A stretch of 52,133 nt of DNA. It comes from a phage. Below, in pieces: positions 33,576-44,361 of this stretch. The number at the start of each line of letters is the position of its first letter. Position 1 is the first letter of the stretch. A model generated the notes under the pieces. The model was given only the letters and a program-made list of their open reading frames with translations. It was not told where the DNA came from and searched no databases. The stretch is from the sequence record OZ470597.1, one strand, 5' to 3'. Position numbers and translations under genes: made by a program.

Positions 33576-33674
33576 GGATTATTATCATGTGGCGTTTGTT
33601 ACTTTTGCCCTTACCTGTTATGATGGCGATCTCTATTGTATACGTTGTCATAATGAGATAAGGAGAATTTTTTG

Positions 33675-34790
33675 ATGAAGCAAATCAAAATCACAGATGA
33701 ACAATTTATCAATGAGCGCAAGCAGGGAAAGACATATAAGCAGATCGCTAATGAGTATGGCATGAACGTTCGAAGCATTGAGCGACGCGCGGCACGATTA
33801 GCAAAGCAGGGTAAAGTTACAACCATCGGATCACCTGGTTTTGGTGTTACTGGAGAATCAAAGCTAATTGATAAAGATGGCAATGTGGTTATGACATGGA
33901 TTAAGACAAGCAAAGACCGCGAACAGTTAGAAGCATTAATGCATGCCGCTATGGATGCATTTAGCGAAGAAGTTCCGCGACTTGATCCGCAGCCAGAATC
34001 ACAAAAGGATTATAGCGAGACGTTATCACTGTATCCGATCTTTGACATGCACTTGGGCGCAATGGCGCATAAGCATGAATGCGGCGAGAATTGGGATACA
34101 GCAACAGCAGAGCGCGTAATGAATAATTTCATTGATTATTCCATCCAGTGCGCACCTGATAGTGAGAATGCTGTTTTGCTGATTGGCGGTGATATGCTTC
34201 ACAGTGACGGACTGGAAGCGGTAACACCTGCAAGCGGTCACGTATTGGATCAAGATAGTCGATACGCAAAACTTGTTTATGTTGCCATCCGGTCAGTGCG
34301 TCGAGCAATTACAAAGCTGTTATCAAAACACAAAAACGTCGAGATTCAGATCATTGAAGGCAACCACGACCAAAGCGGCATGATCTGGTTGCGCGCAGCA
34401 ATGGCGGCAGCATATGAGAATGAGCCGCGAGTGCATGTTGATGTGTCTCCGCGAGTAGTTCATCACACACAATATGGCAAAACGTTCCTGGCATACCATC
34501 ACGGGCATACTATCCGCAAACCTGAAACATTGCTAATGATGTGCGCGGCAGACTGGCGCGAAGACTTCGGCAATTCAAAAATGATGTATGCTCACGTAGG
34601 GCACTGGCATCATCAAACAGTAACTGAAACAAGCCTGGGCATTGTTGAAGTGCATAGCACTATGGCGGCAAAAGATGCATATGCGGCGCGCGGTGGATGG
34701 CGTTCTCGTCGCCGTGCGGCTGTTATTGTTTATGATAAAGAATACGGAGAAGTAGGGCGATTTATGCATTATCCAGAAATGTCTGGTTGA
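33675..34790 (+). CDS. metallophosphoesterase (calcineurin-like) with N-terminal HTH region
   Basis: phosphoesterase motifs GDMLH, GNHD, GHWHH; N-terminal TYKQIANEYGMNVRSIERRAARL helix-turn-helix. Confidence 0.65.
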   Translation: MKQIKITDEQFINERKQGKTYKQIANEYGMNVRSIERRAARLAKQGKVTTIGSPGFGVTGESKLIDKDGNVVMTWIKTSKDREQLEALMHAAMDAFSEEVPRLDPQPESQKDYSETLSLYPIFDMHLGAMAHKHECGENWDTATAERVMNNFIDYSIQCAPDSENAVLLIGGDMLHSDGLEAVTPASGHVLDQDSRYAKLVYVAIRSVRRAITKLLSKHKNVEIQIIEGNHDQSGMIWLRAAMAAAYENEPRVHVDVSPRVVHHTQYGKTFLAYHHGHTIRKPETLLMMCAADWREDFGNSKMMYAHVGHWHHQTVTETSLGIVEVHSTMAAKDAYAARGGWRSRRRAAVIVYDKEYGEVGRFMHYPEMSG

Positions 34791-34833
34791 ACTTTTAATC
34801 ATTAAAATATAAATATAAATCATCAATTTAATT

Positions 34834-34864
34834 GGGCGTGGCATTTTGCTTCGCCCTTTTTTTA
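34834..34864 (+). terminator. intrinsic terminator upstream of lysis cassette
   Basis: GGGCG...CGCCC hairpin followed by TTTTTTT. Confidence 0.6.
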
Positions 34865-34936
34865 TTCCTTTTTATTCGTTCAATGGTTAGGATACAGTCA
34901 ATTAATTGTTGACTTTTATCTACAGGAGATCTAATC

Positions 34937-35152
34937 ATGAAAGATTTTTTAAACGCTGCAACTTCCGGCACTGGCGGCGCGTCAATCACTGGCGCGGTAA
35001 CTGGTCAAACAACTATTGCAATAGCCAGCTTCGTTTTGATGGCTGCATTTGGTATGTGGGGCGCTTATCTTCGCTGGCGTGATAGTAAGGCGCTACGTGA
35101 CGCGCTTGAATGCGGTGATATTAAGAAAGCTATTGAGATCAGAGGTAAATAA
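34937..35152 (+). CDS. holin (pinholin-like, two predicted TMDs)
   Basis: 71 aa, weak Gly/Ala-rich TMD1 and hydrophobic TMD2, charged C-terminus; directly upstream of SAR endolysin with TAATG overlap. Confidence 0.6.
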
Positions 35153-35640
35153 TGAGTATAAAACAAAGAGTGACAGCTGCGGCTTTTGGCGTTGCTCTTG
35201 CCCTTACTTCTCCGCTACTGGAGGAAATAGAAGGAGTAAAACATAAGCCGTACAAAGATATTGCTGGGATATGGACGGTTTGCGCCGGAATAACTGGACC
35301 TGACGTAATACCAGGCAAAACGTACACACAGAGAGAGTGCGATGCGCTACTGGCAAAGCATATCAAGATCGCAAAGGATGAAGTTGATAAACGTGTGAAG
35401 GTTGATATTCCTGATACAATGCGCGCAGCGATGTATTCATTCACATACAATGCTGGCACTGGTGCTTTTAGAAATTCAACCATGCTTAAGCTGATTAATA
35501 ACGGTCGTTATATGGAAGCGTGCAATCAGTTATGGCGATGGACAAAATACACCAACCCAAAAACAGGAAATAAAGAAACGTCTAAAGGACTGCGCAACCG
35601 CCGCGCCGTGGAATTTAAATATTGCATTAAGGATCTGTAA
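35152..35640 (+). CDS. SAR endolysin (T4-lysozyme fold, phage 21 R-like)
   Basis: N-terminal SAR domain [17 protein letters not shown] then [25 protein letters not shown], matching R21 [24 protein letters not shown] catalytic region. Confidence 0.85.
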
Positions 35641-35642
35641 TT

Positions 35643-36041
35643 ATGAGAAAGTTATCGGCAATCGCGATCGCTGTTATCTTGTCTGGATGTTCAAGCGTTA
35701 TGCCACTGACCGGATTAATCGGCAGTAAGCCGGAAATCACAGCACAGGCTGGCGCGGAGAACGTTAAGCAGACAGTTGGCGTTACCGCAAAGCAGGACGC
35801 CAGCACAAAACAGGAAACCACAATAAAGGAATCTGCGGTTGATAAGGTGGACACTTCCAGCAAGAAGGATTTCACTACGTCAACCATTCAGGCTAACACC
35901 ATCAAGGCTGATAAAATCCAGGTTGTGCAGGGTGGGCAAAGGAAGTGGTACGATCCTATAATCTATTGCGCTGCAATTTTTAGTGGTCTTTTGTTAATGA
36001 CTTACTTTTCCTACCGCAAAGGCAACAAAAAGGAGGCTTAA
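35643..36041 (+). CDS. unimolecular spanin (lipoprotein with C-terminal TMD)
   Basis: lipobox ILSGCSS at N-terminus and C-terminal TMD IIYCAAIFSGLLLMTYF; last gene of lysis cassette; terminator after. Confidence 0.7.
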   Translation: MRKLSAIAIAVILSGCSSVMPLTGLIGSKPEITAQAGAENVKQTVGVTAKQDASTKQETTIKESAVDKVDTSSKKDFTTSTIQANTIKADKIQVVQGGQRKWYDPIIYCAAIFSGLLLMTYFSYRKGNKKEA

Positions 36042-36055
36042 CGCCTCCTTTGTTA
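36027..36055. terminator. bidirectional terminator after spanin gene
   Basis: GGAGGC...GCCTCC hairpin flanked by A-run and T-run. Confidence 0.6.
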
Positions 36056-43890: not shown

Positions 43891-44361
43891 ATGAGTGAAT
43901 CTGTATTTACAAATGAGCTTCGCAAGGTTGCGATTGCGCTCGCATCTGGATTGCACGAATCGATCCAGATACCTGAAAGATGGGTAAGGCAGCACCTGGA
44001 GGGTAAGAAGTCAGCCAGCAATGCTGGATCATATATCCGTCAGATTATGGGGCGCGTTCCAGAAGTGGCGGAGAAGGGGAGAGTTTCAGTCTCAAAGAAA
44101 CCTTACGGCCCTGATAGCGAATATTTCGGAGAAAATTACTTTGATGTGGCGATTGTTAGTGCGCCGAATCGCAGGGTGTACAACAAGGCCGCGCTTGAGA
44201 AGGCTGTAGCGAAAGCAAAACGCCAGGTTGCTGAGTCGATGCTTAAAGTCTCACCAAACCTAGCGAACTACTCGCCAGATGAATATGAAACACTTGCTAA
44301 GGCGATCGCAGACTTTCACGCGATCATTAAAGAAACATATCTTAACGATGAGGAACAATAA
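43891..44361 (+). CDS. hypothetical protein (first gene of rightward early arm)
   Basis: 156 aa, GAGGAGG RBS. Confidence 0.5.
   Translation: MSESVFTNELRKVAIALASGLHESIQIPERWVRQHLEGKKSASNAGSYIRQIMGRVPEVAEKGRVSVSKKPYGPDSEYFGENYFDVAIVSAPNRRVYNKAALEKAVAKAKRQVAESMLKVSPNLANYSPDEYETLAKAIADFHAIIKETYLNDEEQ

Follow-up and report, generated by a model that had tools for sequence, protein, structure and literature searches.

By what route would the phage whose DNA is deposited as record OZ470597.1 lyse its host? We analysed this 52,133-nt DNA (the whole stretch is called the window below) at positions 34937-36041 of the plus strand, where three close-packed open reading frames (ORFs) code for a 71-aa holin, a 162-aa endolysin and a 132-aa spanin. 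The initial annotation, made from the letters alone, had described the locus as a lysis cassette of a pinholin-like holin, an endolysin with a signal-anchor-release (SAR) domain and a unimolecular spanin (u-spanin). The ORF coordinates given there are exact, and the identification of holin, endolysin and spanin genes was borne out by profile matches and by BLASTP matches to proteins gp13, gp12 and gp11 of phage T1, which exclude chance. Lysis very probably follows a three-step route of the kind described for phages 21 and T1, here by pinholin, SAR endolysin and u-spanin.

All three products are orthologues of T1 proteins. BLASTP aligned the holin with T1 gp13 at 59% identity (E = 1e-29), the endolysin with gp12 at 65% identity (E = 1e-82) and the spanin, over residues 7-132, with gp11 at 49% identity (E = 6e-38). 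In profile searches the holin matched phrog_2877 ('holin') end to end (E = 1.2e-35), the endolysin matched both PF00959 (Phage_lysozyme; E = 9e-38) and phrog_7 (E = 2e-55), and residues 1-130 of the spanin matched phrog_1804 ('Rz-like spanin'; E = 2.3e-48). Comparison with NCBIfam gave no useful names for the cassette proteins. The gene order is that of T1 genes 13-12-11, with product sizes of 71, 162 and 133 aa in T1 versus 71, 162 and 132 aa in the window. Both phages also have the LSGC lipobox of the spanin, a terminator hairpin lying over the spanin stop codon, convergent helicase genes downstream and an exonuclease gene upstream. The genes are translationally coupled, the endolysin start codon overlapping the holin stop codon as TAATG.

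In the proposed route, the 162-aa lysozyme would be exported by the Sec system, and its weakly hydrophobic SAR segment would keep the enzyme tethered to the inner membrane and inactive. In the second step, the 71-aa holin would accumulate in the inner membrane, trigger at a set time and collapse the membrane potential; most likely the weak N-terminal segment would first move out of the bilayer, leaving the one strongly hydrophobic helix to form small holes. The loss of potential would free all tethered lysozyme at once, and the enzyme would refold and cleave the peptidoglycan. The third step would belong to the 132-aa spanin, predicted to have a lipid anchor in the outer membrane, at Cys16, and a second anchor, the C-terminal helix, in the inner membrane. 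An intact wall would hold the spanin in the peptidoglycan mesh; with the wall gone, the spanin would disrupt the outer membrane, presumably by causing it to fuse with the inner one.

The initial annotation had drawn its holin call from topology only. This is a fair account of the qualifier 'pinholin', for which hydropathy and the SAR-type partner are the grounds, and not of the holin call itself, which is also backed by the similarity to T1 gp13, by membership of a PHROG holin family and by the place of the gene in the cassette. In the holin, 42 consecutive uncharged residues (4-45) are followed by a highly charged C-terminal tail (46-71). The uncharged part comprises a weak and a strong hydrophobic segment (Table 1); in divergent relatives position 23-24 between them is Asp or Glu, which points to a boundary there, and in the family alignment the N-terminal segment and the main helix are conserved to the same degree. 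The protein begins with MKD, so that a basic residue and an acidic one lie at the N-terminus, as in the MDK of S21-68.

The closest likeness in known systems is to pinholin S21 of phage 21 and DLP12, whose K-12 copy is EssD: it has the same length of 71 aa and almost the same hydropathy pattern. We compared rough insertion energies, calculated here and below with Hessa values and of use as comparators only. They were +7.0 to +7.4 kcal/mol for the N-terminal segment of the window holin and +0.3 to +0.4 kcal/mol for its residues 27-45, versus +6.5 kcal/mol for the first segment of EssD and +0.2 to +1.0 kcal/mol for the second. The first transmembrane domain (TMD1) of S21 is a proven SAR-type helix. 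The two proteins differ in that S21 has a dual start, giving an antiholin, whereas in the window holin we found no dual-start motif of the kind present in S21 and proposed for TLS; the link between the hydrophobic segments is uncharged in the window phage. As for the partner, in all five cassettes compared (those of the window, T1, two Braunvirinae phages and one Rogunavirinae phage, a small sample from four Drexlerviridae subfamilies) the holin adjoins an endolysin with an N-terminal hydrophobic segment, and a SAR endolysin is present in 26 of the 28 phages of the gp11 family (PMC6139136). From the topology and this constant pairing we infer that the window holin is a pinholin; the size of its holes is a prediction.

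Several observations weigh against the pinholin label. A search of the holin against the S21 family PF04971 gave no match at E <= 1, while EssD scores 2e-35 in the same family; BLASTP produced no alignment between the holin and EssD, and hhalign returned a probability of 0.9%. Homology to S21/EssD was not detected by any of the three. An AlphaFold2 model of the holin shows one continuous helix (residues 15-58) instead of a two-helix hairpin, although its confidence is modest (mean pLDDT 69, about 50 over residues 1-20) and it does not decide the topology. The T1 GenBank record annotates gp13 with a single transmembrane domain, and in the papers available to us we found no experimental tests of T1 gp13 or its relatives.

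The alternative that draws on these observations takes the 71-aa protein for a holin other than a pinholin. It would span the membrane once, with the N-terminus outside and the C-terminus inside, and form ordinary-sized holes; depolarisation, which any holin brings about, would suffice to free the SAR endolysin. The long modelled helix with its low-confidence, unstructured N-terminus, the annotation of gp13 in T1 and the lack of S21 homology all fit this alternative, and SAR endolysins function with both large-hole holins and pinholins (N4 gp61; bioRxiv 10.1101/2025.11.12.688109). We consider it unlikely nevertheless. The hydropathy profile is close to that of S21/EssD, including the very weak N-terminal segment, which is strongly conserved; and the SAR-type partner recurs in every cassette examined and nearly throughout the gp11 family, while a holin able to release a soluble enzyme should have left some lineages carrying one. 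If the holin is single-pass or makes large holes, the pathway is altered at its second step alone. Any depolarising holin releases SAR endolysins. It is also rather improbable that T1-type holins form a separate lineage with a topology of their own, in which one long helix would follow a conserved, flexible N-terminal arm rich in Gly, Ser and Thr; were this so, the resemblance to S21 could be convergent, or hole size and triggering could differ from those of S21.

A further comparison is offered by the 'releasin' gp25 of phage Mu, a small membrane protein found near the SAR endolysin gp22 and needed for its release (PMC9239132). Mu releasins are membrane-tethered cytoplasmic proteins of the DUF2730 family, whereas the 71-aa protein of the window has no such Pfam match and belongs to a family annotated as holin. 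A pinholin thus named from topology and pairing remains our preferred reading of the 71-aa protein.

The holin family (phrog_2877; precomputed PF27028) is narrow, with 26 clusters at 90% identity and eight at 50% in two large protein collections. A profile search of 1.84 billion representative proteins returned eight holin clusters, all of 70-80 aa, and no link to other holin families. The family occurs in 826 phage records, essentially all of them T1-like, and the window holin is 100% identical to those of phages haarsle and G29-2. Conservation along one face of the main helix is marginal, the observed value being reached by 4-6% of shuffles. The cytoplasmic tail sets lysis timing in other holins; in one homologue of the family, P0023, this tail contains a duplication of about eight residues (roughly DSKVLRE/DSKALRE).

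The endolysin had been credited with an N-terminal SAR domain and a catalytic region like that of phage 21 R, and both parts hold. The protein matched the structure of the phage 21 SAR endolysin (R21; 3HDE, E = 1.8e-40) and that of RrrD, the DLP12 copy (4ZPU, E = 1.6e-39). Both alignments begin at endolysin residue 3 and so include the N-terminal SAR region of R21. The catalytic triad E-8x-D-5x-T is kept: E27, D36 and T42 align with E35, D44 and T50 of R21 (3HDE/RrrD), and E27 and T42 are invariant in the endolysin alignment. RrrD is 49% identical to the window endolysin and a true homologue, with the SAR region aligned and the same triad. The SAR segment of the window protein is 53% Gly, Ala, Ser and Thr, lacks Cys (the first Cys of the protein is C44) and ends four residues before Glu27. 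Its rough insertion energy of +2.3 kcal/mol is marginal and near that of T1 gp12 (+2.7 kcal/mol); the segment of RrrD, at +0.2 kcal/mol, is stronger.

These features support the assignment of the protein as a SAR endolysin of the R21 type. Lyz of phage P1 has the GH24 fold and an N-terminal SAR segment in common with it, and the match is weak but significant (1XJU, E = 3e-06). The SAR endolysin P1 Lyz is activated by disulfide isomerisation, for which it reportedly requires a Cys within the SAR segment. The absence of Cys before residue 44 thus places the window endolysin with R21 and not with P1 Lyz. SAR behaviour is experimentally known for R21, and by homology the window enzyme would likewise stay uncleaved, remain tethered and be released later.

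The N-terminus does have a feature that speaks against a SAR segment: the hydrophobic stretch is short (17 residues) and contains A-L-A at positions 15-17, by sequence a possible signal-peptidase site. One could therefore read it as an ordinary cleavable Sec signal peptide, with a basic n-region (K4, R6), a short hydrophobic core and A15-L16-A17 in agreement with the -3/-1 rule; the product would then be a soluble periplasmic enzyme under some other control. We regard this as very unlikely. A polar c-region is absent, the hydrophobic stretch stops four residues ahead of the catalytic Glu, and the alignment with R21 matches the N-terminal region in its entirety to the SAR region, a part still present in the full-length enzyme that was crystallised (3HDE). 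Nor do relatives keep the A-x-A motif: T1 has A-L-T, and the Braunvirinae and Rogunavirinae relatives have other residues; moreover, a freely secreted active muramidase would lyse cells before assembly ends.

A scan of viral contigs with the endolysin found close relatives only. In one contig (IMGVR_UViG_2974632794_000001, positions 2001-2578) the endolysin gene contains an internal duplication or rearrangement, in which a mid-protein segment precedes the N-terminal SAR region, while some of the N-terminal sequence is repeated downstream; this is probably an assembly artefact.

For the 132-aa protein, the initial reading as a single polypeptide with a lipobox and a C-terminal transmembrane domain, of the T1 gp11 type, agrees with the LSGC motif at Cys16, the uncharged segment at residues 105-124 and the similarity to gp11. 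T1 gp11 is the validated prototype u-spanin; it complements lambda Rz/Rz1 and has the same LSGC lipobox (PMC6139136). The lipoprotein call was made by motif; residues +2 and +3 are both Ser, i.e. the Asp that causes inner-membrane retention is absent. The C-terminal segment, whose rough insertion energy lies between about -0.6 and +0.9 kcal/mol, is followed by the basic tail RKGNKKEA. The only Cys residues of the protein are C16 in the lipobox and C109 inside the transmembrane segment, so none is periplasmic; published data likewise include no periplasmic Cys in any of 58 u-spanins (PMC6139136). An alignment of 36 homologues has an invariant Cys16, about 20 invariant periplasmic positions and no periplasmic Cys, while the signal peptide and C-terminal helix vary freely. 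Taken together, these features support a u-spanin of the T1 gp11 family, which differs from the embedded two-gene pair Rz/Rz1 (RzpD/RzoD) of phage 21/DLP12 in being one polypeptide. That the protein is instead a Cor-like superinfection-exclusion lipoprotein, as a weak match of residues 1-78 to phrog_1119 ('Cor superinfection exclusion protein', E = 5e-05) might suggest, can be dismissed with near certainty, given a match to the spanin profile that is better by about 43 orders of magnitude, similarity to T1 gp11 over the full length, the C-terminal transmembrane segment, the position of the gene as the last in a lysis cassette and the location of the T1 Cor protein elsewhere, at gene 30.

The periplasmic part was modelled with low confidence. 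AlphaFold2 (36 sequences) modelled confident helices at the two ends of the spanin only, including residues 105-128; for residues 17-104 pLDDT was 40-50 and no strands were formed, so the published 'beta-rich' description was not reproduced, a point against the u-spanin reading. [quoted passage not shown] Near the end of this domain we observed a five-residue periodicity (TIQAN / TIKAD / KIQVV).

Table 1. Features of the lysis cassette and its flanks in the window
Feature	Position	Strand	Description
Exonuclease gene	33672-34790		372 aa
Intrinsic-terminator hairpin	34834-34863	+	followed by seven T; -14.6 kcal/mol, z = -4.0, 0/200 shuffles as stable
Conserved intergenic block TGGTTAGGATA	34884-34894	+	contains -10-like hexamer TAGGAT (34888-34893)
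Holin gene	34937-35152	+	71 aa; AGGAG 8 nt 5' of ATG; orthologue of T1 gp13
Holin, weak hydrophobic segment	34946-35005	+	residues 4-23; rich in Gly, Ala, Ser and Thr
Holin, strong transmembrane segment	35009-35071	+	residues 25-45; predicted by hydropathy
Endolysin gene	35152-35640	+	162 aa; SAR-type GH24; orthologue of T1 gp12, homologue of phage 21 R
Endolysin, SAR segment	35170-35220	+	residues 7-23; 17 uncharged residues after K4 and R6
Endolysin, catalytic E27	35230-35232	+	
Endolysin, catalytic D36	35257-35259	+	
Endolysin, catalytic T42	35275-35277	+	
Spanin gene	35643-36041	+	132 aa; begins 2 nt past endolysin stop; unimolecular, orthologue of T1 gp11
Spanin, lipobox L13-S14-G15-C16	35679-35690	+	followed by S17-S18
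Spanin, periplasmic domain	35691-35954	+	residues 17-104; 88 residues
Spanin, C-terminal transmembrane segment	35955-36014	+	residues 105-124; uncharged 20-mer
Hairpin, possible terminator in either direction	36024-36054		plus strand -14.9 kcal/mol, z = -5.1; minus strand -17.0 kcal/mol, z = -5.0

The cassette is bounded by terminators on both sides (Table 1). The upstream one closes the exonuclease gene just 5' of the cassette, and its hairpin and T run are conserved in the aligned relatives. The downstream hairpin is common to the spanin gene and the convergent minus-strand genes, with the spanin stop codon in its loop, and T1 has an annotated terminator at the equivalent place (43966-43988). 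The 5' arm of this hairpin, AAAAAGGAGGC, encodes the C-terminal Lys-Lys-Glu-Ala of the spanin. The KKEA ending is the consensus of the spanin family, though the preceding transmembrane segment varies freely; conservation of the tail may partly reflect an RNA-structure constraint imposed by the terminator hairpin.

How the cassette is transcribed is a separate matter. Upstream of the holin gene we found no convincing sigma-70 promoter, which counts against the proposed reading of the cassette. The sole consensus match, TTGACT-18-AATCAT (34909-34938), overlaps the start codon and so cannot serve the holin gene. The block TGGTTAGGATA varies little or not at all, column by column, among five Tempevirinae-type loci and T1 (which has TAAAAT here). 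From this conservation and its -10-like hexamer it is tentatively proposed as a promoter element for the cassette, and it is the only candidate. The alternative to an own promoter would be read-through of the upstream terminator.

The cassette differs from that of T1 between the exonuclease and holin genes. T1 has an HNH endonuclease gene (gene 15) and a small SH3-like gene (gene 14) there; the window has neither, and its exonuclease gene is followed directly by the terminator and the holin gene. A tblastn search of the window with T1 gp14 (SH3-like, DUF7244) gave a best match with E = 0.55, i.e. noise, and we conclude that the SH3-like accessory gene, recently proposed to belong to Drexlerviridae lysis modules, is absent from the window, positions 34791-34936 included. 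The Braunvirinae and Rogunavirinae cassettes that we fetched do carry it. Its absence from the window fits the status reported for this gene, a 'shell' component present in 188 of 522 Drexlerviridae, mostly Tunavirinae, Braunvirinae and Rogunavirinae (PMC13164509).

Elsewhere in the window we detected a dispersed 20-nt motif, ATAGCACTTTTTGTTAAAAC, with 16 copies at three or fewer mismatches versus 0.01 expected. Eight copies are on the minus strand (6342, 10102, 20769, 38203, 39348, 41891, 42397 and 43273) and eight on the plus strand (29550, 32068, 33088, 44618, 45082, 46069, 47286 and 49971). In the copies examined for flanking sequence a hairpin of variable sequence comes next, in most cases with CATAAT after it; three copies in the structural-gene region run opposite in direction to the large ORFs of that region. 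The motif corresponds to the repeat aaATAGCACnnnTTGnTAAAA reported for TLS, T1 and Rtp and proposed to be a 'stoperator', an enhancer or an UP element (PMC11447400). In phage T1 we counted nine copies, two of them abutting annotated terminators. No copy is present in the 146 bp upstream of the holin gene (34791-34936).

The 1.3-kb DNA of the cassette is 94-97% identical to that of the T1-like coliphages vB_EcoP_06, SFP17, Fulano1, vojen and JakobBernoulli, two of which (vojen and JakobBernoulli) are classified as Drexlerviridae, Tempevirinae, Hanrivervirus. Compared with these five Hanrivervirus/Tempevirinae phages, the window has the same gene boundaries and differs by point changes only. Judged by this similarity, the source phage is a T1-like coliphage of the Drexlerviridae, close to Hanrivervirus. 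About 20 GenBank records in the range MG065636-MG065685, labelled 'Campylobacter phage' with host Campylobacter jejuni, carry the cassette at 94-96% DNA identity and have genome sizes of T1-like phages; they appear to be T1-like E. coli phages, present as contaminants in the preparations or entered under a wrong name.

The cassette is already known: near-identical genomes carry annotated copies, the genes at this place in vojen and JakobBernoulli being named holin, endolysin and u-spanin or RzlA, and the architecture has been published for the T1 family, whose cassettes are described as pinholin, SAR endolysin and u-spanin (PMC6139136, PMC11447400, PMC13164509). An exonuclease-holin-endolysin-spanin core is present in 508 of 522 Drexlerviridae genomes (PMC13164509). 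The locus has this core as well, because the product of the upstream exonuclease gene is a homologue of T1 gp16 ('DNA repair exonuclease'), with 57% identity.

Beyond correct annotation the locus matters little. Both questions that it touches, how u-spanins disrupt the outer membrane and whether the T1-type holin is a true pinholin, belong to the whole family, and the sequence here gives no special handle on either. What the cassette does confirm is a virulent T1-like coliphage with the standard lysis core of the Drexlerviridae.

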